Assembly: GCA_022843885.1 (NCBI GenBank)
Contig: JALHMU010000002.1
Location: forward strand, 1-44,794
Source: Candidatus Peribacteraceae bacterium
GTDB taxonomy: Bacteria > Patescibacteriota > Gracilibacteria > Peribacterales > Peribacteraceae
Reading direction: 5' to 3'
DNA length: 44,794 bases
In this document: positions 11,843 to 37,487 of the stretch, piece after piece
Numbering within the stretch: the first letter of the stretch is position 1
Layout: every line of letters begins with the position of its first letter
Translations under genes and position numbers: made by a program
Notes under the pieces: generated by a model
What the model saw: only the letters and a program-made list of their open reading frames with translations
The model's database searches: none
Told to the model about the DNA's origin: nothing

Positions 11843-11904
11843 GAGCCTGTAAAACAATAGTGTCGAAGGTCTGATGTTTCAGAGATCAAAGAGAAAGTTT
11901 AACA

Positions 11905-14399: not shown

Positions 14400-14461
14400 T
14401 AGTCCGCAAAGCTTTAAGGGATAAATAAGTAAAGAAGCAGGCGTCTGCAATTAACCGGGGG

Positions 14462-16556: not shown

Positions 16557-17759
16557 TTGAATCAAAGCCAAACACTTGATCTACCGATAAAAAAACCAGA
16601 ATCTCTTTCTGGATTGCATCATTTGATGCAAGCAATTCAGGCTTGGTGGTCGAATAAAGGTTCTGAAATATCGCTTATAGACGAAGTGCATTTTGACCAA
16701 CAGTCTGGCACTGGCAACATTAGAATCAGGCTTTCGCTAAACCTTGCGGAAAAGTGTCAGCTCCAAATTCCTGGAGATGATGATTTTCTTCGGTCCTTAA
16801 ATGATGATTGGATTGTTCGCTGCACAATCAACGGTGCCGAATCGCAGCTAGAGCAGTTGTTTTCAAGACATGTATATCGAGACAGGTACGAAATTCTCGC
16901 AAATTATTATTTCATAGACAACAAACGTGTTTATTTGCCGACATCATCACCTAGCAACTGTCGCTTCTGCAGCAGAAGCAGTCCTGATGTCACTTTTATC
17001 CATAAAGCCCATGCAGTCCCAGTGTGTCTTGGCAATAAAACTTTGTTTTCCAAGAACGAATGTGATTCTTGCAATGCATTTTTTGGCGACACCATAGAAA
17101 GTCACCTTGGCAATGTAACACTCAATTCACGAGTGTTGGGAGGGGTGCCCAATCGAAAAGGCTTGCCTTCTCATCACGGAGATGGATGGTCCTCGAAGAT
17201 AGAGAATGGCGTAATCGTCATCGAAGAAGGCAGTAAAGATTTAAATGTACGAGTTAGTGCCGACCAGAAGAAAGTGAACTTCACGGCTTCGACTCGGAGC
17301 TATATTCCTGTGGCGATTTTCAAAGCTTTTGTAAAAATGGCCATTTCACTTATGCCGGACAATGAAGTAGCGAATTTTGATAGTGCAAGAGAATGGTTAT
17401 TAGAACGAGATTATTGTGTTAGACCAACAAATACTAGTCATTTTTTTGATTGCTATCGATCTTTCTTTTCAGGGTGTACCGTTCCAGGACACGCTTTGCT
17501 ATTCAGACGAACTGTGGAAGATCGAAGCATGCCATATATGACTCTAGTAGTGGAATTTGGAAGCTTCTCTTATCAAATTGCCGTGACAGTCGGGAGCCAA
17601 TTTCAAAACCCGATGCCCGTTATGCACAGCCACAGCGCTGGATACAGAAGCAATGCTCCAATAGATATACAGATCATCGATTTGTCTAGCGCTCATGTGG
17701 TAACCACAGAAGCCGAAACCTACACACTTGAAGGGCACCGAATCTTCTCCACAGGCTAG
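16557..17759 (+). CDS. HNH_5-like (Abi-type) putative nuclease
   Basis: 400 aa with a TTG start; the true start could be internal. CRFCSRSSPDVTFIHKAHAVPVCLGNKTLFSKNECDSCNAFFGDTIESHLGN fits the HNH_5 layout (CxxC...H..P..LG.....C..CN..fG). The C-terminal ~250 aa has the same general pattern as 4459..5601. Confidence 0.5.
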   Translation: MNQSQTLDLPIKKPESLSGLHHLMQAIQAWWSNKGSEISLIDEVHFDQQSGTGNIRIRLSLNLAEKCQLQIPGDDDFLRSLNDDWIVRCTINGAESQLEQLFSRHVYRDRYEILANYYFIDNKRVYLPTSSPSNCRFCSRSSPDVTFIHKAHAVPVCLGNKTLFSKNECDSCNAFFGDTIESHLGNVTLNSRVLGGVPNRKGLPSHHGDGWSSKIENGVIVIEEGSKDLNVRVSADQKKVNFTASTRSYIPVAIFKAFVKMAISLMPDNEVANFDSAREWLLERDYCVRPTNTSHFFDCYRSFFSGCTVPGHALLFRRTVEDRSMPYMTLVVEFGSFSYQIAVTVGSQFQNPMPVMHSHSAGYRSNAPIDIQIIDLSSAHVVTTEAETYTLEGHRIFSTG

Positions 17760-18153: not shown

Positions 18154-18519
18154 CTACATTGCTATTTGCGGCTCGACAAAGTAGTAAGCTCCTTTGCCGC
18201 AATTACTGCATTCATTTGTCCAGGCAAAAGATGCTTCCTTCATTCGTGCTTGCTCGTCACCTTCGGTCGGCGCACAGTCAAGACAGTAAAACTTAGAATT
18301 GGCCAAGTGAGTGCCGAAATACTTCGCGAGCATCGTCAACGCCGTTTCCATTTCAGTTTTTGCACTGGCGGCAATATTTGTGATTGCGGCTTCACCTAGG
18401 GCATCTTTGGTTTCCTGATGCAACCGGAGAGTGTCCTTGCACTTAAATGCATGAGTGATCAAGGCCCGCGAAACAAGGTCCAGTTCTTGCTTATCAGTAA
18501 TTTTCAATTCGAGCATCAC
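18154..18519 (-). CDS. Small C4 zinc-ribbon protein, copy 1 (paralogue of 26502..26858)
   Basis: 121 aa. It is collinear with, and roughly 60% identical by eye to, the 118-aa ORF at 26502. It has two Cys pairs, CLDC and CSNC, in FYCLDCAP.EG....EC..CG.GAYYFVEP. It is the last gene of the toxin/immunity operon. Confidence 0.65.
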   Translation of the reverse strand: MMLELKITDKQELDLVSRALITHAFKCKDTLRLHQETKDALGEAAITNIAASAKTEMETALTMLAKYFGTHLANSKFYCLDCAPTEGDEQARMKEASFAWTNECSNCGKGAYYFVEPQIAM

Positions 18520-18540
18520 TCGTATCCTTTGACTACAACC

Positions 18541-19011
18541 CTATTGTAGCTTGTCTTGCGACTCGATCTGGGCTGCTAGTAAATAGTCTAAAGTCTCAGA
18601 AAAGTGGTCATCTTTTCTTATCGGCTCCTTGGTATTATCCCGATAAAGAAAAACAGGTGGGTCATCACCATCAGTGGTGTCAAAGAAAAGGAAATAACCA
18701 CTTTCGCTAAGCCAAAAAACAAAAGCTGTAGACGGTAGCCTGTAGTCGGTGTCGGCATGGTCTAACAAGTCTTGGGCGCCTTGCGTGAGCGTCAAAAGCT
18801 CTGGGTAAAGACGATCGTCATCACGGCAAAAGCCAGCCATACCACGACCCATTTTCAATAAAAACGAGCGATAGATCGGAGGTAGTTTGACCTGAAGTTT
18901 GGCTTCAATTTCTGCTACTTCCGCTTCTGAACAACCAACAAGAGGAGCGCCACTAGCAAGGTTACTGGCAACGACTCGTTTTGAAAAGTTTTCGATGAAT
19001 TGGTTAGTCAT
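18541..19011 (-). CDS. SMI1/KNR4 (SUKH-1) family immunity protein
   Basis: 156 aa. CSEAEVAEIEAKLQVKLPPIYRSFLLKMGRG is the SMI1_KNR4 signature. The start abuts the stop of the toxin gene (19011/19012). Confidence 0.8.
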   Translation of the reverse strand: MTNQFIENFSKRVVASNLASGAPLVGCSEAEVAEIEAKLQVKLPPIYRSFLLKMGRGMAGFCRDDDRLYPELLTLTQGAQDLLDHADTDYRLPSTAFVFWLSESGYFLFFDTTDGDDPPVFLYRDNTKEPIRKDDHFSETLDYLLAAQIESQDKLQ

Positions 19012-20700
19012 TTAATTCCTTTTAGCAAGTCCGAATTCAACGATAAGGGTAATTCTACCCTTAAAAGCCTCGCGAAATTGCTCAATAACACCTTCACAAG
19101 AATCGCACGGTTGGCGCTCTGTATAGAGCTTTATCGTACCCTTTGTTGATTCAGTAATTTTTTCGGCGATGCTTTCCAAAATTTTCTTTTCCGAATGTTC
19201 GACATTCTTCATGAAGCCTCTTGGCTTAGCATCGAACCTGGGGTTTGCCGGCATTGCGACAGTGCCTTCCGGTGAAACCTCCCCGCTAACGCCTACAAGC
19301 GTTCCTTCTTGTCCAGCGATGTCTACATCGGCATAGGCGATGTTTCTATCATTGGCGACGCCATGCTTGACTCTGAGTTCGTCGACTCTATCAAGGCCGT
19401 CTAAGTTTTTGATGAAGTCGTGGGGCTTCTCCTTCATCATGAGAATGTTGTCGTTGGCCGGTCTCAGCTGTTCGACATAACGTGAAGGCACGCCAGCGTA
19501 TTGCAGTTCTTTAGGAGAGATCCCAAGACCTTGCATATAATCCCGCACTATTTGGCGGCTCTGAGCGGCAAGCTCAGGCGTGACCTGGGCTATATTGTCG
19601 GCCGCTTGCATTGCTTTGGTAATACCGTCAACGACCGTTTTATCAACATGCGTAGCCAATCGGTCGGCGGCTTTTAGAGCCAAGTTGCCAGCTTCGGTAC
19701 TCCCTTCTGGATTGAAAAAGAAGAACATAGCTTTGCCGTCCTGGACACCTCTATCATGGGCCGACATTTTGCTGTACTTGTCACTTGCGACCTCAAGTTC
19801 ACGTCCCAAAACGAGCAGCACATTATTAACGGCATTAGGATCACGCTTCATCACGTCCAGACAGGTGCCGATTGTTTTAAAAAGAGGCTCATTTATTGCG
19901 TTTGGAGTTGCCATAAATTTAGCTACGCTATCATCGCAGACCGCAGTCCAGGCCTTTGCGGCTGCCTTCCTCAAGGCATCTTTGGCTTCGTCTTTTGCAA
20001 TACTCAGCCCTTCACCTACACCTGATATTTCATCAAGCATGCCCTGAAAGTATGCCTGCCGTTCTTTTGGTTCGAGCAATCGAGCTTGTGCAGACTTCGC
20101 AAAATCGGCGAGCTTTTGACTTAGGGGAACTTGCATATCGTTGTAGTCCAGACCGGTTCTAAGGAGCCTGTGTGTGGAATCCACAGGCTTAAGAGTGATT
20201 TTGTCATGGTCTGTGTCTGGTAAAGCCGCATTCGGCACCGCAAGTGGTTGCTTGGATTTAGTGTCAGCAAATTGACCACTGTTATAGGTTTTATCGGCGA
20301 GCTGCTGCACTCCATCACATTCAGAACTAACTTGCATCTCAGTCGCACATCCAAAGTCTTCTACGAGGGCCCTAGGCTCTTTATCTGCCATGACCAAGGG
20401 GTCTCGGACACCGATAATGCGTTCGGCCGGCTCGCATGCGCCAAGATCGCCTTCACTGAGCCGACTTTGCCTCGATGCGATGCGGCCGCCGACACCCATA
20501 ATTTGGATGCTTTCTTCTTGCTCGGCGATGAACTTGGCTCGGTCTCGCAGCGAACCATCGCTAGCGTTAGTTCTCAGTCCTTCCGTCACAGCGATACTTT
20601 GCCCATTGGCGTTTCGGGCATGCTGGACTTCCGCTGACTCGAGCTTTGGCTGCTCGGGCGCGACTTGCTTATCCGGAGCGTCGTTGCCGTCTTTAGACAT
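19012..20700 (-). CDS. Polymorphic-toxin-like protein with C-terminal nucleic-acid deaminase domain (HxE...PCxxC)
   Basis: 562 aa. The C-terminus is NVEHSEKKILESIAEKITESTKGTIKLYTERQPCDSCEGVIEQFREAF, with HSE and PCDSC spaced 29 residues apart as in CDA-fold toxin deaminases. A SUKH gene lies immediately downstream. The N-terminal ~440 aa has no signal peptide or recognisable trafficking domain. Confidence 0.7.
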   Translation of the reverse strand: MSKDGNDAPDKQVAPEQPKLESAEVQHARNANGQSIAVTEGLRTNASDGSLRDRAKFIAEQEESIQIMGVGGRIASRQSRLSEGDLGACEPAERIIGVRDPLVMADKEPRALVEDFGCATEMQVSSECDGVQQLADKTYNSGQFADTKSKQPLAVPNAALPDTDHDKITLKPVDSTHRLLRTGLDYNDMQVPLSQKLADFAKSAQARLLEPKERQAYFQGMLDEISGVGEGLSIAKDEAKDALRKAAAKAWTAVCDDSVAKFMATPNAINEPLFKTIGTCLDVMKRDPNAVNNVLLVLGRELEVASDKYSKMSAHDRGVQDGKAMFFFFNPEGSTEAGNLALKAADRLATHVDKTVVDGITKAMQAADNIAQVTPELAAQSRQIVRDYMQGLGISPKELQYAGVPSRYVEQLRPANDNILMMKEKPHDFIKNLDGLDRVDELRVKHGVANDRNIAYADVDIAGQEGTLVGVSGEVSPEGTVAMPANPRFDAKPRGFMKNVEHSEKKILESIAEKITESTKGTIKLYTERQPCDSCEGVIEQFREAFKGRITLIVEFGLAKRN

Positions 20701-23078: not shown

Positions 23079-23828
23079 ATGAGCGAACCAGAAATATCAA
23101 TAATCACACCAGTGAAAGGTACTCATCAATCTCCACTACACCTGCAAAAGCAGCAAGCGATCCAAGCTTCATTAGGCAAACCTATCCTCAAATACCGAGA
23201 TCCACTTATTGGAAGGTTTGTTCTCGGCAATGAAGAAACACACACACATGCTCAATTTGCTGTCGAAAACGGCAAAACGGATGATCTCGAATTCGCAGGT
23301 CACTCAGCGAAACTAGTAGCAATCCATTTTCATAGCCCTAGCGAGCATTGGATTGACGGTAAGAGATTTGAAACCGAGTTTCACTTTGTACACAACATTG
23401 TTGACTACCCAAACGCTGCAACCACACTTGTGGAGCCATCATCGAAATTGGTTATTGGTATTTTCGCCACAGCGAAGAACTCCTTAGCTCCTTGTGAAGG
23501 TAACGATTCCACCAAACCACGTGCATTTGCTACACGCTTGAACCAATTCCTAAAGGCTCAAAAAGAAGGAAAGACAGATGATGAATGTGGGGAGCTTGAC
23601 CTTCCGGAGAACTTACCGCAGCAAGTGATGGACGCCTGCCATGAATTCTTCTATTACCGTGGTTCCCTCACTAGCTTTGCCTACGATGAAACCGTCACGT
23701 GGCTTGTGCCAACCTCTGTAATCGAAACAGAGAAATCATTTCTCAAGGCAGTCCAAGACACTAAGCAGGCGACAAGATCTATTCAATTGTTGAACCGACG
23801 AATAATTCTCTTGTCAAAAGAGGAGTAG
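23079..23828 (+). CDS. Alpha-class carbonic anhydrase-like protein without signal peptide
   Basis: 249 aa. It has HQSPLHL (QSPI-type), IHFHSPSEHWIDGKRFETEFHFVHN (the three Zn His of the alpha-CA HFH...H.VH pattern) and YYRGSLTSFAYDETVTWLV (GSLTTPP..E.V.W). Confidence 0.7.
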   Translation: MSEPEISIITPVKGTHQSPLHLQKQQAIQASLGKPILKYRDPLIGRFVLGNEETHTHAQFAVENGKTDDLEFAGHSAKLVAIHFHSPSEHWIDGKRFETEFHFVHNIVDYPNAATTLVEPSSKLVIGIFATAKNSLAPCEGNDSTKPRAFATRLNQFLKAQKEGKTDDECGELDLPENLPQQVMDACHEFFYYRGSLTSFAYDETVTWLVPTSVIETEKSFLKAVQDTKQATRSIQLLNRRIILLSKEE

Positions 23829-23910: not shown

Positions 23911-25539
23911 CTATGCCGTATCAACCTCGCCTAGATAAAGTTGAACGGGCTTACCTTCAGAAAGAATCTTCTCTTTCAACAAAGAAATCTTCGAAGAAAG
24001 CCAAACCCAATCTCTCCGAGTAGGAGCTGTGAGCAATTCTTCGGCTAACAAATTGATCTGAACCAGCAGAGCACCCTCAGTGGTCCTAGAACCGCTGTAG
24101 CGAAGGGCAACCTCAACTCTACCCCGCCAGTTGTCAGAAGACGGCTTTACGAACGTCAGAGGAGAAGTCTTATTTGAACTCGAAAGAGAAGAACTCAATA
24201 ACGACAATTCTGATGAATCACGCTGAACCGACTTGTCAAAGGTTCGAGAAAAAACAAATCCAGCTCGAACAACATCCTCAGGCAAACAACCCGAACAATT
24301 TTCAAACTTCACAGCGTTATAAACGTGTAAAGCAGTTTCCAAGCACCCGCTGCGAAGGTCTTCCATAGCTTGTTTCCACAGTTCCGGATATTTAGCGATC
24401 GTTCGCGAGCTGACGCCGCTCTTGAGCGAGAGGTCCCTGGTGCTGAATTGCATGTCTGCTTCGCGGAAGTCTTCAACAGCGGCAGCAATTTTCCTCTGTG
24501 CTAAAGAAGCTCGGTTGGCGTTGTTTCTAATCCAAGAAATAGGGACAACTGGTTCATGCTTTCGCCACTCAGTTCCGCGCCGATGTGGTGGCACCCAATT
24601 AGTGGCGCGTCCAATATGATTAAAAGCGTCTCCGCGTCCGGCCGCAATGTCTTTACTTTGACCGTTGTGCTTGTTCTTGATTAGTGAGTCGATGAGGCAT
24701 TGTCGCTCATCTTCAAAGCCATAACCCATGGCAGGGACTTGGTGGCCGGAATCGCCATAGAACAGATAATGCGAAAGGGCAAAAATAGCGTCCGCTCTTT
24801 GGGAAGGACCGGTCAGTCCCTGGATATAATACTCTCGCCCTTTGACCCACGTGTCCGCTTTTATCCCGCGCGGAATTTTACGAAATGCCTTTTTTACTAT
24901 TTGGAGAGCCTCTTCTGATCCTTCTCCATCTACATTTTTTCGAATCGAAATAACGTCCGCTAGTCTCGCACCGACTTTTTCTTCGCCCGAACTCTGAGCT
25001 TTGGAGGAAGCTAGGTTTTCGACAAACGCACGTAGCTTGTGGAAGTGCGCATATGGATTGGCCGAGCATTCGATATCTTTTGCGAATACCAGAAGTGCTT
25101 CGGTAGGACTCAGTTCATCACGTTCTTCGCGCACAATTTGGTTGTGGTGATTTAGCCAGGCAAATCCCGGCTGTAGTGGCAAGCGAAGTCCTTGCCCAAC
25201 GGAATTGCGTCCTTCTCCTGGATTCGGGAAAATCTCGAGAGTTCCTTTGGCCACTTCGAATTCGTTCAAGGTAAGCAAGTTATGGAACTGCCGATACAGG
25301 TCGCGAGTGCTCACTGGAGCATCGAAGAAGATGTAGATATGCCAGCCGCCTGAGTGCGACGAACGGTACAAGTTGAAGCCTTCGATGCCCGCTTGTTCTA
25401 AAAGGGTCGCTATTTTTGAGAATCCTTCTTCGTTGTGATATTTGCTGCCGGCATCAATATCGAGCACTACGAATTTGCTGACCTTGCCGCACCTTGCTCC
25501 AATGAAATACTTTGGATGGACGCAAGCAGCAGCTTTCAA
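23911..25539 (-). CDS. AEP/prim-pol-like replicase-type protein with C-terminal HTH (paralogue B); true 5' end probably upstream of 25539
   Basis: 542 aa from a TTG. The motifs are VVLDIDAG (DxD), SHSGGWHIYIFF (sGxH) and GLRLPLQPGFAWLN. The C-terminal HTH is FSTRDLSLKSGVSSRTIAKY. Homology to paralogue C continues in frame upstream to about 25650, and the frame stays open to a TAA at 25792-25794. Confidence 0.6.
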   Translation of the reverse strand: MKAAACVHPKYFIGARCGKVSKFVVLDIDAGSKYHNEEGFSKIATLLEQAGIEGFNLYRSSHSGGWHIYIFFDAPVSTRDLYRQFHNLLTLNEFEVAKGTLEIFPNPGEGRNSVGQGLRLPLQPGFAWLNHHNQIVREERDELSPTEALLVFAKDIECSANPYAHFHKLRAFVENLASSKAQSSGEEKVGARLADVISIRKNVDGEGSEEALQIVKKAFRKIPRGIKADTWVKGREYYIQGLTGPSQRADAIFALSHYLFYGDSGHQVPAMGYGFEDERQCLIDSLIKNKHNGQSKDIAAGRGDAFNHIGRATNWVPPHRRGTEWRKHEPVVPISWIRNNANRASLAQRKIAAAVEDFREADMQFSTRDLSLKSGVSSRTIAKYPELWKQAMEDLRSGCLETALHVYNAVKFENCSGCLPEDVVRAGFVFSRTFDKSVQRDSSELSLLSSSLSSSNKTSPLTFVKPSSDNWRGRVEVALRYSGSRTTEGALLVQINLLAEELLTAPTRRDWVWLSSKISLLKEKILSEGKPVQLYLGEVDTA

Positions 25540-25897: not shown

Positions 25898-26036
25898 ATC
25901 CGTTTTTTTTGAGCCCTCCTATTTTTTGGCCTTGAATGGCCAGTAGCATGTGTAAACCCTTTAGCTGACTTTCAAAGTCACTTCTTTCTTAAGCGAGCTC
26001 AGGTACTTGGTTAGCCACTGCCCATGGGGCAGCAAC

Positions 26037-26081
26037 CAGAAAAAGTCCCAAGGCAAAGCCTTGGGGGAGCCTTACGGCTCC
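26037..26081 (-). terminator. Double hairpin + T-run terminator of the 26072..26290 gene
   Basis: On the minus strand, ggagcc-gtaa-ggctcc (with the stop codon in the loop) is followed by cccaagg-ctttg-ccttggg and then acttttt. Confidence 0.6.
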
Positions 26082-26290
26082 CAGGCTCCCGAGTCTCGCA
26101 TTTGGTCGCAATAGACTTCGTACATGTCGCGCTCTGCCATGTCTTTGATGAACTGAGAGCGCATTGCATCAACTTTGTTGGCACTTGCTGTATCTGCAAA
26201 ACGTGCGCCCATGCCTCGCGAGATTGAGATCACCGTGTTTGCTGGCACATTTACGTCGAACAAAACTGAAAGCATTGCGTGATATCTCAT
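26072..26290 (-). CDS. Small hypothetical protein (72 aa)
   Basis: The ORF ends in a strong terminator structure and is the last gene of the minus-strand block. I recognise no motif. Confidence 0.45.
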   Translation of the reverse strand: MRYHAMLSVLFDVNVPANTVISISRGMGARFADTASANKVDAMRSQFIKDMAERDMYEVYCDQMRDSGAWEP

Positions 26291-26501
26291 TGTCTAATCC
26301 TCTTTGGTCCGGCGCCTTCACCGGCTTCTTAGGGAATACCGCCAAAAATTTTGCTGTCAGGACTGGCGCAGCCACCCGCTAGGGCTTGGTCTTGATAGCA
26401 AAAATTTTGGTGGTACCTTCAAGAAAGCCGGGGAGGTGCTTCGACAATCTAGTGCAGTCCGGCAACGCCGGACGGAGCGGTGTAGGCGATGTTCAAGGGC
26501 T

Positions 26502-26858
26502 CTATAACTTCGGTTCTACGAAGTAGTAAGCGCCATTGCCGCATTTAGAACACTCGCTCCATCTTGCAAATTCGGCTTCGGTCATGCGGTCGTGTTCGGC
26601 GCCCTCGCTAGGTGCGCAGTCGAGGCAGTAAAATTTTGAATTGCTCAAATGGACGCCAAAGTATTTGGCGATCATCGTCAAAGCTTCGTGCATCTCGTTC
26701 TTTGCTTTCTCAGCAGTCATAGTAATCGCGTTTTCTTTTAGCGCGTCTTTCGTTTCGTTATGCAAATTGATGATGCCCTTGCATTTGAAGACGTGGCTAA
26801 TGAGCGCACTTAGCACTAACAAGCGTTCGTTATCGTCAGTAATTTTTAAGTCCGGCAT
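26502..26858 (-). CDS. Small C4 zinc-ribbon protein, copy 2 (paralogue of 18154..18519)
   Basis: 118 aa, collinear with the 18154 copy. The start overlaps the NADAR stop by 1 nt (TGATG at 26858), implying translational coupling. Confidence 0.7.
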   Translation of the reverse strand: MPDLKITDDNERLLVLSALISHVFKCKGIINLHNETKDALKENAITMTAEKAKNEMHEALTMIAKYFGVHLSNSKFYCLDCAPSEGAEHDRMTEAEFARWSECSKCGNGAYYFVEPKL

Positions 26859-27442
26859 CAGGCTATCACCTCCAATAAATCACGTACTTCCATAAGGGCG
26901 AATCCCAGCAGATTCCTGCCTTTCCATAGCCTTGGGTCGCGGGCGCCAGGCGCACTAGCCACCATGCCGATGCCCCATATTTTGTCCCACATACTCGCTT
27001 CAACGAGAATTTTTGGCGTGGTAGCGGCAAGAAAGTCAATCATTTTCGGGTGCGCCGAAAACTTAGCCAGGTTTGCTTTTACGACAATTTGAAAACAATG
27101 GTTTTGCCATTTTTCGCCGTCAAAATTCTGCACTTTTCGACCAAAAGCTTTTGCCTCTTTCGGTGTTTTGCATTCCAGAATATTTTTTAGCATCACCGCA
27201 TCGTCAAACAGACGCGCCTTTTCAGCCATCATGAAATGCTCAGCGGTCAAGTATTTAGTACCATCAATCTCAAACTCGGCAGAAAACCACTGACTAAGGC
27301 AAGCAGCGGTGATACTACCGTCGGTGCTCGACTTGTGACCGTAGAACAAGAGGTAATCAACCTCCTGCCCGTGTTCTAGTTGCTCGATCAGTTTTTCTCT
27401 TGAATATTTCAACGCGGTTCCATAAATTACGGTGCTGTCCAC
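26858..27442 (-). CDS. NADAR (YbiA/DUF1768) family protein
   Basis: 194 aa. YLLFYGHK...LSQWFSAEFEIDGTKYLTAEHFMMAEKARLFDD...PKEAKAFGRKVQNFDGEKW...KANLAKFSAHP...LVEAS.WDKIWGIG follows the NADAR/YbiA consensus throughout. Confidence 0.8.
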   Translation of the reverse strand: MDSTVIYGTALKYSREKLIEQLEHGQEVDYLLFYGHKSSTDGSITAACLSQWFSAEFEIDGTKYLTAEHFMMAEKARLFDDAVMLKNILECKTPKEAKAFGRKVQNFDGEKWQNHCFQIVVKANLAKFSAHPKMIDFLAATTPKILVEASMWDKIWGIGMVASAPGARDPRLWKGRNLLGFALMEVRDLLEVIA

Positions 27443-27849
27443 GGATCGATAACAGGCACGCCAAGGGCTTGAAACGGCGCCACATCGCGCGTAGCGACAC
27501 TGAAATTATGCACGCTGGCGATAGCGCCAATTTGTCCATCAGGCATCGAGACGGCTTTACCTTGGGCGCGCGCGGCGCTCAGTAACTGGCTGTAAGCCAT
27601 GGCAGCAGCATGATCGAATGGCAGGATTCTTGTATCGAACAAGCGAGAAATGAGCAAATCGAGGGCTGCACTGATTGTAGATTTCCGCTTGCCATCAGGC
27701 ATTACAGCGATACCGATCAGAAGTTCTGCCAGGCTGGTGGACGCAAGATACAGCGTCTCGGCTGATTGCTGGTCAAGCCAGGCGATAACTGCCGGGTCTC
27801 TGCCTGGCTTGAGCGCTTCGGACACCACATTTGTATCGAGAACAATCAT
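27427..27849 (-). CDS. vapC: PIN-domain toxin VapC/FitB-like
   Basis: 140 aa. It begins MIVLDTNVVSE, has acidic residues spaced as in PIN domains, and overlaps the upstream antitoxin by 4 nt. Confidence 0.85.
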   Translation of the reverse strand: MIVLDTNVVSEALKPGRDPAVIAWLDQQSAETLYLASTSLAELLIGIAVMPDGKRKSTISAALDLLISRLFDTRILPFDHAAAMAYSQLLSAARAQGKAVSMPDGQIGAIASVHNFSVATRDVAPFQALGVPVIDPWTAP

Positions 27850-28085
27850 TCAAAACTCGCTATGCGTGGGGGTTCCTGTTCGCGCTCTACTTTTAGATCG
27901 TCTAATTTGTATTTGTCGCCGAATGCTGCAAGCTCTGAGCCTACCTTGATCCGCTCTTTGGGTCTTACTGCCGCTTCTAGAATTTCGCGCACTTCCGCTT
28001 CGGTGCTGCGCCCGTTCTGGGCAGCTCTAACACGTAAAGCGCGGTGGGTTTCTTCAGGCAGATTTCTAACTGTAATTGATGCCAT
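27846..28085 (-). CDS. vapB: VapB/FitA-type (Arc/RHH-like, plasmid-stability) antitoxin
   Basis: MASITVRNLPEETHRALRVRAAQNGRSTEAEVREILE is the FitA/StbC-type N-terminus. ATG 28085 is preceded by AAGAGGTG. The longer ORF to 28118 lacks an RBS. Confidence 0.75.
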   Translation of the reverse strand: MASITVRNLPEETHRALRVRAAQNGRSTEAEVREILEAAVRPKERIKVGSELAAFGDKYKLDDLKVEREQEPPRIASFE

Positions 28086-28229
28086 GATTTCACCTCTTAA
28101 ATATCGATTGCACTGCAAGCAATGATATCACATTTCTAATAATGACAGCAAGGCGAAACATGGCGCCGGTTTGTTTCTTCGCCTAAGGCATGGCGGGGCA
28201 CCTGAGTTGGCACCCCGCTATGCCTGCCT

Positions 28230-28697
28230 TTATGGCCACAGGTGGGGCCGGGTCTCTCTGAGGCTGCATGAGCCGTTAGAGCTAACGATCAAGTGATCGA
28301 TAACCGAGACGCCTAGCAGCTTGCCCGCTTTTATCAAGGTTTCAGTGGTTTCCAGGTCTTCCGGGCTCGGACTGAGCGATCCGGCTGGGTGGTTGTGGGC
28401 AACGATTATTGCATACGAATTAGCAAGCAAAGCAGCTTTGAAAACCTCCCGCGGATGCACAAGAGACGCGCTAACAGTGCCATGAGAGACGATGTGATAG
28501 CCGATTACTTGATTCTTTGCGTCCAGGTGAAAAGCTACAAAATGCTCTTCTGAGTAGTGTTTAAGCGGTTCCACAAATCGCTCCAGGTCGTCAGGGCAAC
28601 CAATCGGAACGGGCTTAGCGCCCGGCTCTTTGATAAGTGCAAGGCGCATTTCAGGCACGATGTATTTTAGGTGTTTTTTCAGGGTCCGGCTGTTCAT
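28230..28697 (-). CDS. radC: RadC-like JAB/MPN domain protein
   Basis: IIVAHNHPAGSLSPSPEDLETTETLIKAGKLLGVSVIDHLIV is the JAMM/RadC motif. ATG 28697 is preceded by GGAGGAAA. Confidence 0.85.
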   Translation of the reverse strand: MNSRTLKKHLKYIVPEMRLALIKEPGAKPVPIGCPDDLERFVEPLKHYSEEHFVAFHLDAKNQVIGYHIVSHGTVSASLVHPREVFKAALLANSYAIIVAHNHPAGSLSPSPEDLETTETLIKAGKLLGVSVIDHLIVSSNGSCSLRETRPHLWP

Positions 28698-29096
28698 GCT
28701 GTTTTCCTCCAGTCTAGCTAGGTGCAGGGCTGCGCAGCGCACCCCATGCAGCACATGCCGGTCAGCCCCCAGGCACGGGATCCGGTGTCAATGCCTCCGA
28801 CCGCAGGGAGGACCGAAGGCTTGGGCATTGACACTGGGTGACGGGGGCTAGGCTTATGTGCCGGGCATGGAAGGAAGCGAGCAAGCCCGTGTATCCCGCC
28901 AGGTCTGGATTAAATATGGCTGCGGGGCAGTCTTCGCCAGTGATTTAGGTTTTGCAGTGGCGTAAGAAGTCCTAAAAAACGGGCAAAAAACAACCAGGGA
29001 ATTCCACCTTTCCTAAACGAGCATCTTTGTCCAATGATGTTGTAAGGAATTCCAATCAATCACCCCGCCGTCTGTTTCAGTCTTCGAGGTTCATTT

Positions 29097-29372
29097 ATGA
29101 AAAAAGCAAGTCGCCGCAAGCAAACACAAATGATCGACCGCGAAGCGGTTGAAAATGCCATGCTCGATACGATGCGATTGAGAGCGGCATTGCTTCTTGC
29201 CTGCACCGAGCTGTGCAACGGCGACCCCCTGGAAGGCTGGGGACTGGCGGAAGAGTTTTATGACCAGGCGCCGGCCCTCATCGCAGGTTTAACCGACACG
29301 GGCAAAACCCAATTGCCTTGCGGTCCGGCGCAAGTGCTACAATTTCCGACCAAACCAGATTCAAAGCCTTAG
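29097..29372 (+). CDS. Small hypothetical protein (91 aa)
   Basis: The ATG is preceded by GAGG, and a strong terminator follows at 29399. I recognise no motif. Confidence 0.4.
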   Translation: MKKASRRKQTQMIDREAVENAMLDTMRLRAALLLACTELCNGDPLEGWGLAEEFYDQAPALIAGLTDTGKTQLPCGPAQVLQFPTKPDSKP

Positions 29373-29398
29373 TGGACGAGGATTAGGATAAGGAATTA

Positions 29399-29430
29399 GG
29401 CGGGGGCAAGCCCCCGCCTTTGTTTTTGTT
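29399..29430 (+). terminator. Rho-independent terminator GGCGGGGG-caag-CCCCCGCC + T-run
   Basis: A perfect 8-bp GC stem at 29399-29418 is followed by tttgtttttgtt. It lies between the convergent 29097 (+) and ssb (-) genes. Confidence 0.8.
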
Positions 29431-29815
29431 ATGCGGCTGCCTTACTCTTACGAGCGGACTTCGCTTCGCTCGACTTTTCAGATTCAGGCTTTTTGCCACA
29501 GAGGTGGAATCCCGAGAGCTTCACCACCGGACGTTTCATCTCGACCTTAACGCCGTTGATTTCCTTCATGTATTTGGAGATTGAGAGCCTGCCAGCAATT
29601 GCAACTTCGCGTCCTTCAGTTATGTATTTCATAACCCGGTCAGCAAGCCCGTTCCAGGACTCGACATCAATCCACATAGGCTCCGGATTGTCGGTTTTGG
29701 ATGAGTAGTCGGCCACGGCTAGAGAGAACTTAGCCAGTTTGTTGTCCGTGTCAGTGAAGGTTGTTGAGGTGGGATTTTGACCGACGCGACCGATGAAGTT
29801 GACTTGGTTGTTCAT
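29429..29815 (-). CDS. ssb: Single-stranded DNA-binding protein (OB fold) with basic rather than acidic C-terminal tail
   Basis: MNNQVNFIGRVGQNPTSTTF....AKFSLAV......W..VESWNGLADRVMKYITEGREVAIAGRL is a typical SSB OB fold. ATG 29815 is preceded by GGAGG. The tail ends KSARKSKAAA. Confidence 0.8.
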   Translation of the reverse strand: MNNQVNFIGRVGQNPTSTTFTDTDNKLAKFSLAVADYSSKTDNPEPMWIDVESWNGLADRVMKYITEGREVAIAGRLSISKYMKEINGVKVEMKRPVVKLSGFHLCGKKPESEKSSEAKSARKSKAAA

Positions 29816-30231
29816 AAGATGGCACCTCCAGTGCTGTGTTTGAGTGCCAAAAGACACGCAACTGTTTTCGTGAGTGCAAGGACGCCGAGGCGCGGAACGC
29901 AGTGGAGTTTATCCTTGCACGGTAGAAAACCGGTGCCAGAGTTAGGCACTTTCTTACACAGCCCTGGGGTAGCCAGATATGCACAACCAACGAACATCAA
30001 GGCGCAGAGGTCTTCTCGCCTTAAGAACCATCAAAACGGACAATAAAAACGTGAGTTCTCTAAAGCCTGAAGACACTCATCACAGGACAATCCGAGACCA
30101 AACTTGATGTCGAAGAAAAGGACTAGTTGACCGAGCCAGAGATAACCGAAGACGCGTACAAACTAGACAAGCTCTCACTCTCCACAAAGGAATAAACGGC
30201 GTTAGAGATGAAACGCCAGGGCTCTCAAAGA

Positions 30232-31026
30232 TTACGGCAAACAAAAAGCGCAAGTCTGACATGGGCGAAGCGAGTCTTTCTGAGCCTTTAGAGCAAGGTT
30301 GCCCATAGCAGCAGGGCAGAGGGTGAGCAGGTCATGTCGCACAGGCTCTACATGTCGCCCACCTCGGTGATAAGGAAAACTAACGATGTCTGTTTCAGAA
30401 TCCATCACCTCGAAAGATCGAATAACTCCCGAATCCAGGTCGCTGTCCTGCAAGAGAGCTAGCTTCCAAACTGCTGCAGGCGTTTTGCACAATGCCAAAA
30501 TCGCTTGTTCATAGTTCTCAGAATCAACCGAAAGCCAGCCCTGGCAGTTGGGTAGAGCCGCTAATTCAGTCAACGCATCGAACACAAGTCCGGGAGCAAA
30601 ACTTCTGGTGTAAAACCAGAACTTGCACCCAGTGTACTTTTGAGCGGTTAGCATCCAAGCACGAACGTAATCGACGGAGAAAAAATCTCCCACATCGTGG
30701 ATACGCAAAGTCCAAGGGATTGTAGTTTGCACACCAGCAATCCTGGCAGTGAGCCAATCGCGTGGGCGTGCTTGATCAACAAGCATCGAAAGATTTTCAG
30801 CCAGTAGCTCCGGGCCGCCCTCGTCAAGGAGGAATTGCAAAGTCCGCAAATTACGAGCCCGCTTTGCTTTCTGACCTTGACTTTGATAGCGGATTCCGTT
30901 GCCATAGCATAGTCGTTTGCAAAGTGTAGTCGCATTGATGCATGTCTCAGTCCGTGGAAGACTGAATGCCCATCCTACTTTGCTGTTATTGGTCAGCTCC
31001 AAACCATAATCAAGAGTTATTGCCAT
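30232..31026 (-). CDS. GP88-like (phage/plasmid gene product 88 family) Cys-rich protein
   Basis: FSLPRTETCINATTLCKRLCYGNG at the N-terminus and CPAAMG....CQTCAFC at the C-terminus match my recollection of PF17338-type proteins. ATG 31026 is preceded by GGAGA. The 5' extension to 31218 looks non-coding. Confidence 0.5.
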   Translation of the reverse strand: MAITLDYGLELTNNSKVGWAFSLPRTETCINATTLCKRLCYGNGIRYQSQGQKAKRARNLRTLQFLLDEGGPELLAENLSMLVDQARPRDWLTARIAGVQTTIPWTLRIHDVGDFFSVDYVRAWMLTAQKYTGCKFWFYTRSFAPGLVFDALTELAALPNCQGWLSVDSENYEQAILALCKTPAAVWKLALLQDSDLDSGVIRSFEVMDSETDIVSFPYHRGGRHVEPVRHDLLTLCPAAMGNLALKAQKDSLRPCQTCAFCLP

Positions 31027-31310
31027 CGTCCATTTCTCCATGAGCCTAAACTGGCAGCACGCGCTGCTGTGGCTCGCCCCCCGGCTTGGCTCCGGAGCGA
31101 CTACGTCAGTAAAAAATTCAGGAGAAAAAGAGACAAGGCGGTCGCGCCGGTGGTGCAAAGTCGGGAGAATGGGCGAACCAGCGCGGCGAGAGCAGGAACA
31201 ACCTGGTCTTGGGGGCAACCAATAAGACTCAGGAAATTTTCAAAAATCGTTGCCATAATCCAGCCAAAAGTTCTCGCTAAAGTAATTTCAGTGAGCAAGG
31301 CGGGCGGATT

Positions 31311-32702
31311 ATGGCAAGACTAGAAGACCTTCAAAACCGCGAAACACAAGGTATTGAGTCACGAAATGCCGCCTTTCTTTCGCAATCTGTACAAGATTTG
31401 TTTGAGACAAAGTTTGGTCCAGGTATTCAAAATGCTTTGCCGGAACTATTAGATTTTGGGGCAGGGCCGGACTTATACCTGTCGGCCGCTTATACTGATG
31501 ACAGCCGATCTTCAGCGGGTGTTTTCATGGCGGACGAGTCAGACAACAAACCAGAGGTGCCTAAAGTACAGTCCCCGTGGGACGCTCTACGTCGTCCTGA
31601 TGCCATCCGGACGAAGGAAGACGAGGCGATTTGGGCCAAGATGCAGGAGCCCCATAAGCTCGGAAAGGATGAGTCTGCCACGCATATCGGGCTTACGCCA
31701 GAGGTGGTCGCTGATATGCAGAAGAAAGGACAGGCGTCTAAACTGGTCTTTTTTGACAGCGCAGCCGAAGGCGCTCTGTCTGCACTCCAAGAAACGGCCA
31801 AGGAAAAGCCGACTTTGTTGGCGAATGTTCCTGAAGCCCAAGATGTCGTTTCCGACATGACCAGGGGCGGCCTGCCGATGCCGGGGACGTTGCTTCCAGA
31901 GCCATGGATGCTCAAGGCCGGTGCTGATCTGTTTCCTACTTTCTGCAAGATCGCTTTGAACGCAACATCGGCCAAATTCCAAGAAACGTTTGATGCTGTG
32001 AAGAAAGCCGTAGTCAATCCTATCGAGCATCCTTTCCGAGGACATGAAGAAGCGACGCTAGCCCTTGTTCCACAGGCTAGTTGGAGCGAAGCATACAAGG
32101 CTTTCCCTGACCTGAAGAAGATTGGTGGATTGTCAGAAGAGCAGTCCACCAGACTAATGAAAGCGATTGTGGGCAATGAATTGACCTTTTACGGACCTGA
32201 AGACAAAGCGCAGGATGCAATTTGCGTGGCCGGACAAGGAAGATTCATAATGGGCAAAACGGTAGGATTCGCACAGATAGCCCCTGAAGGAGTGCGCAAA
32301 GTCTCTGCTGAATTCGATGAAGAAGTTAAGAAGGGCAGTCGGGCGATGAATCCGCTTGCGAAGCTAGCAGCACTTAGCGACGACGAACTAGCAAAAGCGA
32401 TGCTGAAGCCAGAGAATGTGCCGGTCTTAGTCGCGGCAAACATCGCACACAATCTAAAAATGTTTGCCAACCATGCAAGCGAAGTGGAGATAAACCCACT
32501 GACACTGGGCTATCAGTTCAATCCGGACTGCGTTTATGCAAAAACAGACACAAAACACTCGAAAATATTGAGCACGAAAGAAGCTCGCAAAATGGGTCTT
32601 GGTGACGATGATACGGTTACAGCGTTGCCGTCAAAAAACGTTCTGGCAAAATCGGAACACGCGCACAACATTGAAAAATGGCTCAAGAAGCTGGGCGGCT
32701 AA
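31311..32702 (+). CDS. Large hypothetical protein (463 aa)
   Basis: A long ORF divergent from the GP88-like gene. There is a possible lytic-transglycosylase-like stretch (GNELTFYGPED...GKTVGFAQIAPEGV), but this is weak. Confidence 0.5.
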   Translation: MARLEDLQNRETQGIESRNAAFLSQSVQDLFETKFGPGIQNALPELLDFGAGPDLYLSAAYTDDSRSSAGVFMADESDNKPEVPKVQSPWDALRRPDAIRTKEDEAIWAKMQEPHKLGKDESATHIGLTPEVVADMQKKGQASKLVFFDSAAEGALSALQETAKEKPTLLANVPEAQDVVSDMTRGGLPMPGTLLPEPWMLKAGADLFPTFCKIALNATSAKFQETFDAVKKAVVNPIEHPFRGHEEATLALVPQASWSEAYKAFPDLKKIGGLSEEQSTRLMKAIVGNELTFYGPEDKAQDAICVAGQGRFIMGKTVGFAQIAPEGVRKVSAEFDEEVKKGSRAMNPLAKLAALSDDELAKAMLKPENVPVLVAANIAHNLKMFANHASEVEINPLTLGYQFNPDCVYAKTDTKHSKILSTKEARKMGLGDDDTVTALPSKNVLAKSEHAHNIEKWLKKLGG

Positions 32703-32989
32703 GATTTTTTCGTGACGATTTTGATTATTTCGTAAACGCCAAGGCCTAATGCTCCAGAAGCAAAGCCGCATGCAGCCCCTATCACAAGTGCAAACTTTAG
32801 CGATTCGGTTTCGTCACCGGGTTGTTTTATTTCCCAACCGGCGAACCGAGCTCGTGCTCGGTGCATGTCTTTAAGACCATAGTCATACCAGTGCCAGACG
32901 GAAAGTCCGCCAATAATAAAAAACGGTAGCAGAAAGGCAATTAACCGCCCTTTGGAAAGGAATTTTTTTCGCCCTGGTTGATCGTCCAT
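32699..32989 (-). CDS. Small membrane protein (two predicted TM helices)
   Basis: 96 aa with hydrophobic segments LIAFLLPFFIIGGLSVW and FALVIGAACGFASGALGLGVY. It converges with and overlaps the 31311 gene by 4 nt. Confidence 0.45.
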   Translation of the reverse strand: MDDQPGRKKFLSKGRLIAFLLPFFIIGGLSVWHWYDYGLKDMHRARARFAGWEIKQPGDETESLKFALVIGAACGFASGALGLGVYEIIKIVTKKS

Positions 32990-33034
32990 CGTTCAAGTAT
33001 AAAACTCTCGCGTTAGCATGCCAGGCTTCAAACT

Positions 33035-34642
33035 TTAGAAAGCGGGCGGCCCCCTGGTCTTTGGGAGACTTTCGTGTACGACGGACCGCCCAGTAATAAC
33101 AAAACACAGATCCGAGCCACTGGACTGCTGATAATTAGAAGACACGTAAAGAATTGAAGAAGCCAAAGAACTGACCTGTTCAGGCGGCGCGGACGTTACT
33201 TCAGGAACAACTAAATTGTCTTCTTGAAGAAGGTCAGGAGCTTCCTGAACGAGATCAGGAACGATTGAAATGAACAGGGCCGGGCGCTCCGGCGGCCTAA
33301 GATCGCCTCCCCCGTTTGACAACCGGAATATTCCCCAGATATCTACATGGCGCCGGATCGTCTTTCGGTCGCAGCCGGTGACGCGTTCCAATGCCCGCAC
33401 ACTGACCCGCTTGCCATTTTCCAGCAGTAGCAGTACTCCACTGCGAATTTGTTCGCGCGCGCCTTCTTCCCTTCCGACATTGCCTTTTCTGAAATCGTCG
33501 GGGCACCAGACTCGTCCAGTTTGTTTTGTCAGTCGTATTAGGCGATCGATTGCGCGATCGCTAAGGTTGGAATAACTGGGCTGGCTTTGGTGAGAGCGCT
33601 CAGCGCCTTCAGAAGGCGTCCAATTGCAAGCGGACTGTATATCCCGTCCTATTTGGCCCCAATCGCCTTTCAAAACCGATTTTGAGAAGCCGTTGTGTTT
33701 TTCTCGCAGCCAGGCTTCGATTACTTGGGCCCTTTGCTCAGCACGAGCCACCCCTGGTAATGCCCTGACACCTTCGGCTACGTCGCCATACCAGAGGTAG
33801 TGCCCAATAGATAAAACCGCCTGGTGGCGTTGAGAAGGCGCGGTCAGCCCGTTTAACCAGAATTCGCGACCGGCGTTATAAACGTCCGGTAGCATGCCGG
33901 CGAAAGTGAAGAAGTCGGAAAAGCCGTCATCTGGCGGATCTTGCTCCGGCGTCGCCGGCGGAACGATATCGGTCGCGGCGGCGGATTCAATGGCTTCTAG
34001 CCTGCGTTTTATACAATCCTGGACGTAGTACCAATCATGACTGTTTGCGTCCAGGTCCTCGACAAAGGTAGTTATTGCCTGATCAGTGGAGATGTCTTCT
34101 CTTGTAAATCTAGTTTCCCCTTGGTCATCCAGCCAGGCAAAGCCGCGTTGTAGGGGCAAGCGGAGCCCATTGTTTGACGGGAAGAGTTCAAGCTGACCTT
34201 TTCTGACTTCAATTCCTTCAGCCAGTAGCCATCGTTTGAAAAGGTCGTGACTTTCTCTGCTATCAACTAATTGGTCAAAAGCCAAGTAAATATGCCAGCC
34301 TTCGCTTTCACTAGATTGATACAAGAGCGGATTCAGTAGCCCGACCGACGAAAGCAGGTGTTTGAGACGGGCAAGACCAATTTCGTTGTGATACTGGCTT
34401 TCTATATCAACATCAAAAACAGAAACCTGTGACTGCTTGTCCCAACGACATCCCCAAAAGCATTTTTCCTTCAATGCAATTGCAGACAAAATAGTGTCAT
34501 CTGTGAGATGTCCGTGGCGGCTGACAGTGACCCAATCGCGGTGCGGCCATTTCAATATGCTTCTTTGCCTGTTCGGAAACAGCGACAAAAATCTTTGTCG
34601 CACGTCCTCAAAAGCAACTTTAGTTTGCGCGCTCAAATCCAC
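33035..34642 (-). CDS. AEP/prim-pol-like replicase-type protein with C-terminal HTH (paralogue C)
   Basis: 535 aa. The motifs are VSVFDVDIES (DxD), SESEGWHIYLAF (sxH) and GLRLPLQRGFAWLD. The middle block GLTAPSQRHQAVLSIGHYLWYGD is shared with paralogue B. The C-terminal HTH is VSVRALERVTGCDRKTIRRHV. Confidence 0.6.
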   Translation of the reverse strand: MDLSAQTKVAFEDVRQRFLSLFPNRQRSILKWPHRDWVTVSRHGHLTDDTILSAIALKEKCFWGCRWDKQSQVSVFDVDIESQYHNEIGLARLKHLLSSVGLLNPLLYQSSESEGWHIYLAFDQLVDSRESHDLFKRWLLAEGIEVRKGQLELFPSNNGLRLPLQRGFAWLDDQGETRFTREDISTDQAITTFVEDLDANSHDWYYVQDCIKRRLEAIESAAATDIVPPATPEQDPPDDGFSDFFTFAGMLPDVYNAGREFWLNGLTAPSQRHQAVLSIGHYLWYGDVAEGVRALPGVARAEQRAQVIEAWLREKHNGFSKSVLKGDWGQIGRDIQSACNWTPSEGAERSHQSQPSYSNLSDRAIDRLIRLTKQTGRVWCPDDFRKGNVGREEGAREQIRSGVLLLLENGKRVSVRALERVTGCDRKTIRRHVDIWGIFRLSNGGGDLRPPERPALFISIVPDLVQEAPDLLQEDNLVVPEVTSAPPEQVSSLASSILYVSSNYQQSSGSDLCFVITGRSVVHESLPKTRGPPAF

Positions 34643-34802
34643 TGAGCGCGCCGAAGCATGTCCGGTAATTGTTTGTCACCCGTAATTTTTGACGAGTTGA
34701 CCTATCCGGACCGTTGGTTTATTCTGGTGTCACTTCGGAAAAATAGCCAAAAATCCGACGACAACTGAATATCTTGAGGTCCGCAAAAGATCTCTCAAAA
34801 AA

Positions 34803-34830
34803 CATCGCCCCCAAGCGGTGTTTTTTGTTT
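34803..34830. terminator. Hairpin flanked by an A-run and a T-run (aaaaaa catcgc ccccaa gcggtg tttttt), homologous to 25871-25897
   Basis: Read directly. It has bidirectional terminator-like geometry and lies in the leader of the paralogue C gene. Confidence 0.55.
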
Positions 34831-35020
34831 AGTTGATTGTTTGAGTCAGCGGTTCTGCTTTCTAGGGAGCCGGGCTCCAGATGTCTAACGGATATGCATT
34901 GGTTTTCTTTGCCAAGTGCCACCAGCCACTATATAAGGTGCCTGGAAATCGATCAACACTTTGGATCTCTCAGAAGCGGATCGCCGGGCAGTTCAACCCA
35001 TGCAGAATTGAGCCTGAAAT

Positions 35021-37170: not shown

Positions 37171-37487
37171 AAACCCTCTTGGCAAAATGCCCATATTAGT
37201 CCGGACTGGTTGGGCGTTTCAGGCGAAGTAATTACCGTACCACAAAGGTAATAGTTTCTGGCACAGCAATCAGCAGTTGTCGTTAGGGGTAATTCGAGGC
37301 CCATCATTACGGGTGCAGGTCTCAACTCGCCAAGCTGTGGGTGTTACTGGACGACATCTGTAGAATTCAGCGCCAACGGAAAAATAGATTGTTCGAGGTT
37401 GGGAAGTGCGTTGAACGATTTTGATTTCAAGATCGGGATCGAGCCTTCCTTCAAAAAAATCACTGATGGCCTCGAGCTGTCCAAAGG

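Follow-up and report, generated by a model that had tools for sequence, protein, structure and literature searches.

What a small protein might do beside two unrelated antidote-type proteins is the question raised by contig JALHMU010000002.1 (assembly GCA_022843885.1, Candidatus Peribacteraceae bacterium), of which the whole 44,794-nt stretch analyzed here is referred to as the window. The window carries two copies of a small zinc-ribbon gene, the family of which is labelled ZR in this report; one copy adjoins a NADAR gene and the other a SUKH gene with its deaminase toxin, and these neighbors, confirmed by Pfam matches, are as a first-pass annotation made from the sequence alone had described them. 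That annotation had regarded ZR as a small partner shared by two unrelated antidote-type proteins. Comparison with related loci points elsewhere: the chances are about even that ZR is a backbone gene confined to one lineage and serving the transfer/establishment module of mobilisable and conjugative Melainabacteria plasmids (from Vampirovibrionia/Obscuribacterales-type metagenome-assembled genomes, MAGs), and the narrower assignment as a relaxosome or mobilisation accessory has a probability somewhat short of even. The genes that raise the question are:

26502..26858, minus strand: ZR copy A, 118 aa, helical hairpin and C4 zinc ribbon (open reading frame, ORF; AlphaFold2 pLDDT 87; invariant CxxC...CxxC)
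18154..18519, minus strand: ZR copy B, 120/121 aa, probable ATG at 18516 (ORF; 66% identical to copy A)
26858..27442, minus strand: YbiA-type NADAR gene (PF08719, E = 2e-47; TIGR02464, 158 bits)
18541..19011, minus strand: SUKH-1 immunity gene (Pfam)
19012..20700, minus strand: polymorphic toxin of 562 aa with a BURPS668_1122 deaminase C-terminus (Pfam)

To place ZR in its genomic context, 83 loci (numbered L001 onwards) were collected, ORFs were called, neighbors were clustered and the clusters were labelled by Pfam. Among the 33 distinct ZR sequences with context, the gene upstream of ZR was distributed as follows:

8 of 33: ribbon-helix-helix (RHH) relaxase-accessory gene
7 of 33: BrnA-like RHH gene
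3 of 33: DUF5615 (PIN-like) gene
2 of 33: PIN gene
2 of 33: NADAR gene
1 of 33: SUKH gene
1 of 33: integrase gene
1 of 33: RadC gene
5 of 33: orphan genes
4 of 33: contig end

The commonest upstream neighbors are therefore RHH accessory (8), BrnA-like (7) and PIN-type genes (5), and not the NADAR and SUKH genes for which a neighborhood bias had been suspected; NADAR is the downstream neighbor in two further distinct sequences. An obligate cognate pair, as expected of a type II toxin-antitoxin (TA) system, was not found, since the upstream partners vary (RHH accessory, BrnA-like, PIN, DUF5615, NADAR, SUKH, integrase, RadC) and ZR can stand alone. For the BrnA-like protein, identity as an ADP-ribosyltransferase (ART) was considered and rejected: the weak DRAT match (E = 0.0045) was seen in one of the two members scanned, and the alignment of the BrnA-like proteins shows an RHH domain and a helical C-terminal domain.

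Two plasmid architectures recur. Small plasmids are arranged as helix-turn-helix gene, Rep (~740 aa), oriT-like region, RHH accessory, ZR, relaxase, RHH gene, toxin and immunity gene, and here the accessory stop codon overlaps the ZR start by 8 nt while the ZR stop abuts the relaxase start. ZR is thus encoded within the relaxase operon next to oriT, as would be expected of a relaxosome accessory, in 8 distinct sequences (~19 loci), including L021, a complete circle of 10,137 bp (127-bp terminal repeat) with about ten genes. Larger plasmids carry on one strand Rep/GP88, the single-stranded DNA-binding protein gene SSB, RadC, in some cases a TA module, ZR, several small ORFs, the oriT-like region, the RHH accessory, the relaxase and the type IV coupling protein (T4CP). 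A co-directional relaxase gene lies 0.37-4.3 kb downstream of ZR in 12 distinct sequences and upstream in none. In conservation ZR equals RadC, SSB and T4CP and exceeds Rep, the accessory protein and the relaxase. Its divergence tracks that of the relaxase best (Pearson r = 0.82, mirror-tree), a kind of correlation that is weak evidence, the sequences being phylogenetically non-independent. Both flanks of ZR are sites of cargo exchange, occupied by TA modules, toxin-immunity pairs, NADAR genes and integrases.

The oriT-like region is defined by the 12-mer GTAAGGCAAGAT, which is preceded by an inverted repeat and is present in 41 of the 83 loci. No transfer module carries it more than once; L015 and L016, with two modules each, have two copies on opposite strands. 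The 12-mer precedes the RHH accessory gene by ~140 nt and, in 40 of the 41 loci, shares the strand of ZR, which is 0.6 kb downstream of it in small plasmids and 1.8-7 kb upstream of it in larger ones. Its position in the circular plasmid is given as an example:

L021:3640-3675: inverted repeat and GTAAGGCAAGAT (equivalent position in 40 other loci)

The inverted repeat and the 12-mer together probably form the oriT core of these plasmids. Presumably the 12-mer recalls MOBQ-style oriT cores (GGTAAG...), which we take as a lead only. An RP4/Ti-like ATCCTG motif was also considered as nic site and set aside in favor of the 12-mer, as it is confined to a subset of the small plasmids. The closest curated relaxases (DUF3363-type) show only ~36% identity over the N-terminal 130 aa, and because of this distance there is no annotated model plasmid for comparison.

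Taken together, ZR is positionally tied to the oriT/relaxase module and co-directional with the RHH-accessory/relaxase operon. We propose that ZR would be co-produced with the RHH accessory protein and the relaxase, that it might serve the DNA-processing/transfer module as a zinc-stabilised, mildly acidic accessory that binds protein or possibly single-stranded DNA (ssDNA), and that its site of action in transfer and establishment may be the relaxosome or the transferred strand. Protein binding is favored, DNA binding being less likely.

Several observations weigh against placing ZR in the transfer module. Known relaxosome accessories are usually basic DNA binders, whereas ZR is mildly acidic, and it has no biochemical or structural likeness to any known relaxosome protein. 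In larger plasmids it is located 2-7 kb upstream of the relaxase operon and not within it, the relaxase beside it is replaced in L023, L056 and L063 with ZR intact, and no relaxase lies near ZR in the window or in the 265-kb contig L001. ZR can moreover be an independent transcription unit, since it has its own upstream region in L001, L039 and L004. The sampling behind these counts was centered on ZR. Finally, in ~740 kb of related loci no NADAR gene is more than 50 nt away from ZR; the two share a strand and occur in either order, and this constant abutment is explained only loosely by a pure cargo hot spot.

The ZR protein itself belongs to a small and isolated family. A word-indexed search of 5.8 billion proteins returned 74 clusters, all at least 66% identical, with lengths of 117-129 aa except for two shorter truncated entries (109 and 64 aa); none of the 74 has a Pfam domain or a meaningful name. 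A profile search of 1.84 billion representatives at 50% identity found one full-length ZR cluster and a few fragments, with no distant relatives and no fusions. Searches of Pfam, NCBIfam, PHROGs and PADLOC, a sequence-profile search of the PDB, and tblastn against PLSDB (72,556 curated plasmids) and phage genomes gave no match. With the structural model, Foldseek against PDB and BFVD gave a best match no better than E = 0.6, and none of the 213 PDB matches reached E <= 0.001. Remote homology was accordingly rejected, the searches being negative or returning only generic helical-hairpin or rubredoxin-knuckle noise, and the initial impression that the protein matches no described family held throughout.

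In 37 aligned homologs the cysteines C78/C81 and C103/C106 are invariant, with a spacing of CxxC-x21-CxxC, as is a fifth cysteine, C26. An AlphaFold2 model built from 37 sequences (pLDDT 87) predicts a hairpin of helices 9-43 and 46-67 followed by a three-stranded ribbon (strands 75-77, 92-94 and 112-114; pLDDT ~90) that carries both CxxC pairs. With two CxxC knuckles on a small three-stranded sheet, the modelled fold is that of a generic C4 zinc ribbon, for which bound zinc is predicted. H22, H33 and H70, near-invariant, lie with C26 outside the C4 ribbon (window 26649..26795); these four residues may belong to a second metal site or to a dimer interface. The protein is mildly acidic (median pI 5.9, net charge -3). 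Hosts of ZR contigs named in the genome records are Melainabacteria/Obscuribacterales MAGs and one Oculatellaceae MAG, and a few further contigs are probably mis-binned. ZR is an unannotated, taxon-restricted family whose domain combination is distinctive and whose plasmids are missing from curated collections.

Why the window holds two such genes follows from its composition. Both small ORFs are present where the first-pass annotation had placed them and share the sequence blocks that it quoted; they are collinear, and the identity of ~60% estimated by eye proved slightly low (BLASTP 78/118 identities, 66%, no gaps, E = 3e-57). The ORF given for copy B (18154..18519, 121 aa) stood, but its likeliest start is the ATG at 18516, giving 120 aa as in public assemblies. 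The copy A protein is found 100% identical on at least 23 public contigs. The copy B protein is found identical on 20 contigs, where SUKH precedes it wherever upstream DNA is present and a convergent HNH_5 gene always follows. DNA similarity between the copies is limited to the stretch from start to stop codon, the flanks being unrelated, and their divergence amounts to pN = 0.22 and pS = 0.86 (nonsynonymous and synonymous differences per site), the latter saturated. Because similarity is confined to the ORFs and pS is saturated, the copies are two old, functional paralogs and not a recent duplication; a recent segmental duplication, already doubted in the first-pass annotation, is ruled out on the same grounds. 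The median dN/dS of the family is ~0.08 (19 distinct coding sequences), and both copies are under purifying selection. That each copy is the terminal gene of a minus-strand operon has become doubtful for copy A, as related contigs carry a called ORF downstream of it, and many related plasmids have co-directional genes after ZR:

26072..26290: 72-aa ORF downstream of copy A, called in related contigs
26047..26065: terminator-like hairpin beyond the 72-aa ORF

A 194-bp segment immediately 3' of copy A (26299..26492) is present twice in L013-type plasmids (L013:10466-10659 and 10869-11062; 94-98% identity).

The larger setting of the two copies is described by the following features:

794..2038, minus strand: archaeo-eukaryotic primase (AEP)/primase-like Rep paralog
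23911..25539, minus strand: second AEP/primase-like Rep paralog, heading the unit that ends in ZR copy B (PF22548 weak; clusters with plasmid Rep genes)
33035..34642, minus strand: third AEP/primase-like Rep paralog, heading the unit that ends in ZR copy A (tblastn to plasmid Reps, E down to 1e-92)
26009..34965: backbone block 91-98% identical to plasmid contig L013 (blastn)
29429..29857, minus strand: SSB gene, backbone, in the recurrent order SSB, RadC, ..., ZR
28230..28754, minus strand: RadC-like JAB gene, like SSB a backbone gene preceding ZR in large plasmids
27846..28118, minus strand: FitA-like RHH antitoxin (PF22513, E = 4e-22)
27427..27849, minus strand: PIN toxin (PF01850, E = 9e-12)
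36577..37194: resolvase
16204..16452: resolvase fragment

On the minus strand the order is Rep 3, ..., SSB, RadC, FitA, PIN, NADAR and copy A, and then Rep 2, ..., toxin, SUKH and copy B, so that each ZR holds its usual distal position in a Rep-led unit. The three Rep paralogs are 29-32% identical to one another (Rep 2 and Rep 3, 29%). Homology to L013, a contig that itself continues to a relaxase and T4CP, breaks off at 26009; the 44.8-kb window has no relaxase, T4CP, accessory gene or 12-mer. Owing to this break the window is a mosaic in which two or more Rep-led backbone units are joined; several plasmid backbones seem to have been combined in the contig, as a co-integrate or mosaic. The apparent duplication of ZR arises because each Rep-led unit ends in its own diverged copy. 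Apparent cargo at 10532..16086, 23079..23828 and 39904..41070 comprises a cytochrome P460/ResB/CcsA cytochrome-c maturation cluster, a carbonic anhydrase gene and an RHS-repeat fragment.

Among the alternatives to a mobilisation role in the transfer module, it is unlikely, though worth serious attention, that ZR is an establishment or anti-defence factor, expressed early in the recipient from the oriT-adjacent region together with SSB, RadC, TA modules and NADAR, where it would bind a host protein and inhibit a defence or stress response. Clustering of SSB, TA and anti-defence genes by oriT in one orientation is the signature of leading-region islands (PMC11541004), and it is matched by the co-directional layout of the large plasmids, in which Rep/GP88, SSB, RadC, TA genes, ZR and small ORFs run towards the oriT-like element and the relaxase. 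ZR is also small, mildly acidic and orphan, like many anti-defence proteins, and it adjoins NADAR, a plausible counter to defences that ADP-ribosylate ssDNA or DNA. However, in small plasmids ZR is within the relaxase operon and thus across the oriT-like element from its place in the large ones, so that a leading position is impossible for one of the two plasmid types; co-directionality with the 12-mer is retained on either side, and reading the direction of entry from it requires the nicked strand. Moreover, anti-defence genes are usually patchy and fast-varying, whereas ZR is near-universal in these plasmids under strong purifying selection, and it has neither PADLOC nor anti-defence homology.

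Rather improbable is a role of ZR as transcriptional (auto)regulator of the mobilisation/establishment region, possibly together with the upstream RHH protein. Of the 29 known upstream neighbors 15 are RHH DNA-binding proteins that are translationally coupled to ZR (-8 to +6 nt; 33 nt in one BrnA-like case). Where ZR is separated from the preceding gene, a partly palindromic element, GCTGCAAnTATTTyGC, is found upstream (L001:4190-4246, L039:6430-6487 and L004:5945-6000), followed by a TATAAT box in L001 and L039; this region may be a promoter or operator. The element is nevertheless restricted to two ZR clades, ZR lacks a recognisable DNA-binding motif and is acidic overall, and the likeness of the RHH accessory to the BrnA-like proteins goes no further than the RHH fold. 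Shared ancestry of the latter two was rejected, as hhalign matched the RHH motif alone (E = 0.056).

The idea of the first-pass annotation, that ZR is a dedicated zinc-dependent adaptor or regulator working with the antidote-type proteins NADAR and SUKH, or more specifically a NADAR partner, is decidedly improbable, despite the constant adjacency described above. NADAR enzymes remove ADP-ribose from guanine in DNA and antagonise DarT1-type toxins, in agreement with the roles named in that annotation (PMC11543638; PMC11125620), and association with DarT has been reported to be exclusive to BC4488-type NADARs (PMC11125620). The NADAR of the window scores 37.6 bits on the anti-phage NADAR model against a cut-off of 240 bits, and is of the YbiA type, not of the BC4488 type that pairs with DarT1; no ART domain, as a DarT1-NADAR pair would include, was found among ZR neighbors in the scanned loci. 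Its TGA shares the A with the ATG of copy A (1-nt overlap; junction GCCTGATGCC). NADAR occurs in four architectures, upstream of ZR in the window and in L046/L047 and downstream of it in L038 and L029. Its identities (73-81%) parallel the ZR identities between the same loci, and with 10-20 genes per locus the adjacency is more than random placement predicts. The force of this inference is reduced because the ZR flanks are the main points of cargo exchange. Furthermore, comparison of the window with sister plasmids identified one segment as variably present:

26864..27423: NADAR-bearing segment, absent from sister plasmids L019/L050 (blastn break points)

In L019/L050, which share 85% DNA identity with the window, PIN is directly followed by ZR, and relative to them the window has NADAR cleanly inserted, as ~560 bp that separate the stop of PIN from the start of ZR. 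Conversely, in L013, L015-L018, L048 and L049 the inner 499 bp of NADAR (26915..27413) are deleted (in L013 at 9944/9945) with both ORF ends kept, ZR being 100% identical in plasmids that are otherwise 98% identical around NADAR. NADAR was inserted between PIN and copy A and later partly deleted in sibling plasmids.

A similar picture emerges for SUKH at copy B, where three further features are relevant:

18520..18556, minus strand: conserved 5' flank of copy B with hairpin CTACAA-N5-TTGTAG, including the last codons (LQ*) of SUKH
16557..17759, plus strand: HNH_5 gene convergent on copy B, kept in all copy-B contigs
19012..20700 (residues 168-422 of the toxin): conserved middle with variable C-termini, a toxin family shared with L038:9262-10932

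The closest relative of copy B (86% identity) is in L046, in the order DddA-like toxin, Imm1, a 108-aa ORF, NADAR and ZR. The window and L046 have the ~37-nt flank in common (L046:1786-1822), and the unrelated SUKH and NADAR ORFs both end inside it with Leu-Gln-stop. SUKH of copy B fills the slot held by NADAR in L046, and since the flank is shared under unrelated ORFs, upstream cassettes have been swapped at one fixed junction. Whether a recurrent recombination site borders ZR cassettes was also considered, and this was rejected, as the hairpin is confined to the flank of copy B, its one occurrence in the window, and to L046. SUKH and ZR are kept together in L034 and L035, where a resolvase fragment replaces the toxin gene, which would favor a SUKH partnership. 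Against both partnerships, NADAR adjoins 4 and SUKH 1 of the 33 distinct ZR sequences and the remaining 28 adjoin neither, no NADAR-ZR or SUKH-ZR fusion was found among the 1.84 billion representatives, and the interchangeability of the two at the same 5' flank suggests a hot spot at which cassettes are exchanged. Neither NADAR nor SUKH is an obligatory neighbor of ZR, and their pairing with it, and with it the notion of a partner shared by two antidotes, is mostly explained by the swapping of cargo.

Regarding the toxins themselves, residues 168-422 of the window toxin are 39% identical to the L038 toxin, the C-terminus of which differs. L029 is a further polymorphic-toxin site in these plasmids, and others are:

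L021:6649-8568: 639-aa protein with a CDI EC869-like nuclease C-terminus
L046:1-438: DddA-like deaminase, with Imm1
L001:4939-5736: Ntox44 protein, two genes downstream of ZR

If ZR indeed belongs to the transfer module, it would be a new and structurally distinct accessory among relaxosome and establishment factors, and a marker gene for a plasmid family of non-photosynthetic cyanobacterial relatives. This family is unrepresented among the curated plasmids of PLSDB and is rich in polymorphic toxins, TA modules and YbiA-type NADAR. It is possible, at well below even chances, that ZR is an unrecognised zinc-ribbon part of the DNA-transfer machinery of a new plasmid/MOB lineage, or that it acts on the incoming single strand with YbiA-type NADAR, clearing ADP-ribose lesions; NADAR always landing beside ZR would then be explained by cooperation of the two on that strand. 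The strict ZR-NADAR adjacency is thus a testable lead on how mobile DNA might handle DNA ADP-ribosylation.

Comparison with known systems bears first on two remaining alternatives. TraR, encoded in the F tra operon, combines a coiled-coil hairpin with a C4 zinc finger. Binding of ZR to the secondary channel of RNA polymerase in the manner of DksA/TraR would fit its gross architecture, with a helical hairpin ahead of a four-cysteine zinc site, in a plasmid transfer context, but is very improbable: none of 37 members matched PF01258 even at E <= 10, no DksA/TraR/Gre chain is among the best 50 of the 213 Foldseek PDB matches, the cysteine spacing is x21 instead of x17 in that family, and a DxxDxA-like acidic tip is absent. 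Hardly credible, and already contradicted by fold and distribution, is ZR as toxin of a YbiA-YarT-like pair: a YbiA-type NADAR directly upstream of a gene of ~115 aa, and translationally coupled to it, mimics the order and sizes of YbiA (156 aa) and the small ART toxin YarT (114 aa), but the ART fold of YarT is built on a six-stranded beta core and carries an H-Y-E motif (pattern H-Y-[E/D/Q]), and YarT depends on an adjacent YbiA antitoxin (PMC11125620; for DarT1-NADAR, PMC11543638), whereas ZR is predicted to form two long helices and a zinc ribbon, no ART gene is present in the loci, and NADAR is facultative on either side of ZR, which mostly lacks it (29 of 33 distinct sequences) and is sometimes a solitary unit, as would not be tolerable for a toxin.

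Immunity cassettes of polymorphic toxins (SUKH, Imm1) resemble the ZR loci in that ZR lies at the 3' end of a toxin-immunity module in the window and, in L046, beyond the 108-aa ORF and NADAR. In contrast to immunity proteins, ZR has no Pfam immunity match and stays constant (at least 66% identical) while the toxins beside it vary (deaminase, DddA-like, Ntox44, EC869-like) or are missing; for most ZR genes there is no neighboring toxin. With leading-region islands (PMC11541004) ZR shares the clustering in one orientation with SSB, TA modules and small uncharacterised genes by the transfer origin; it differs in that its side of the oriT-like element flips between plasmid types and in being strongly conserved and not patchy.

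Small third genes are also known from relaxase (mob) operons, namely MobB/MobC of RSF1010-type and TraH/TraJ/TraK of RP4-type plasmids. Like these, ZR in ~19 loci is a short gene placed between an RHH oriT-accessory gene and the relaxase gene, with translational coupling, just 3' of the inverted repeat and 12-mer. Unlike these proteins, ZR is an acidic zinc ribbon without sequence or fold likeness to them, lies 2-7 kb from the relaxase operon in larger plasmids and persists without a relaxase. ZR is not a new kind of system; it is an uncharacterised backbone gene with its place among the small accessory genes of plasmid transfer/establishment regions.

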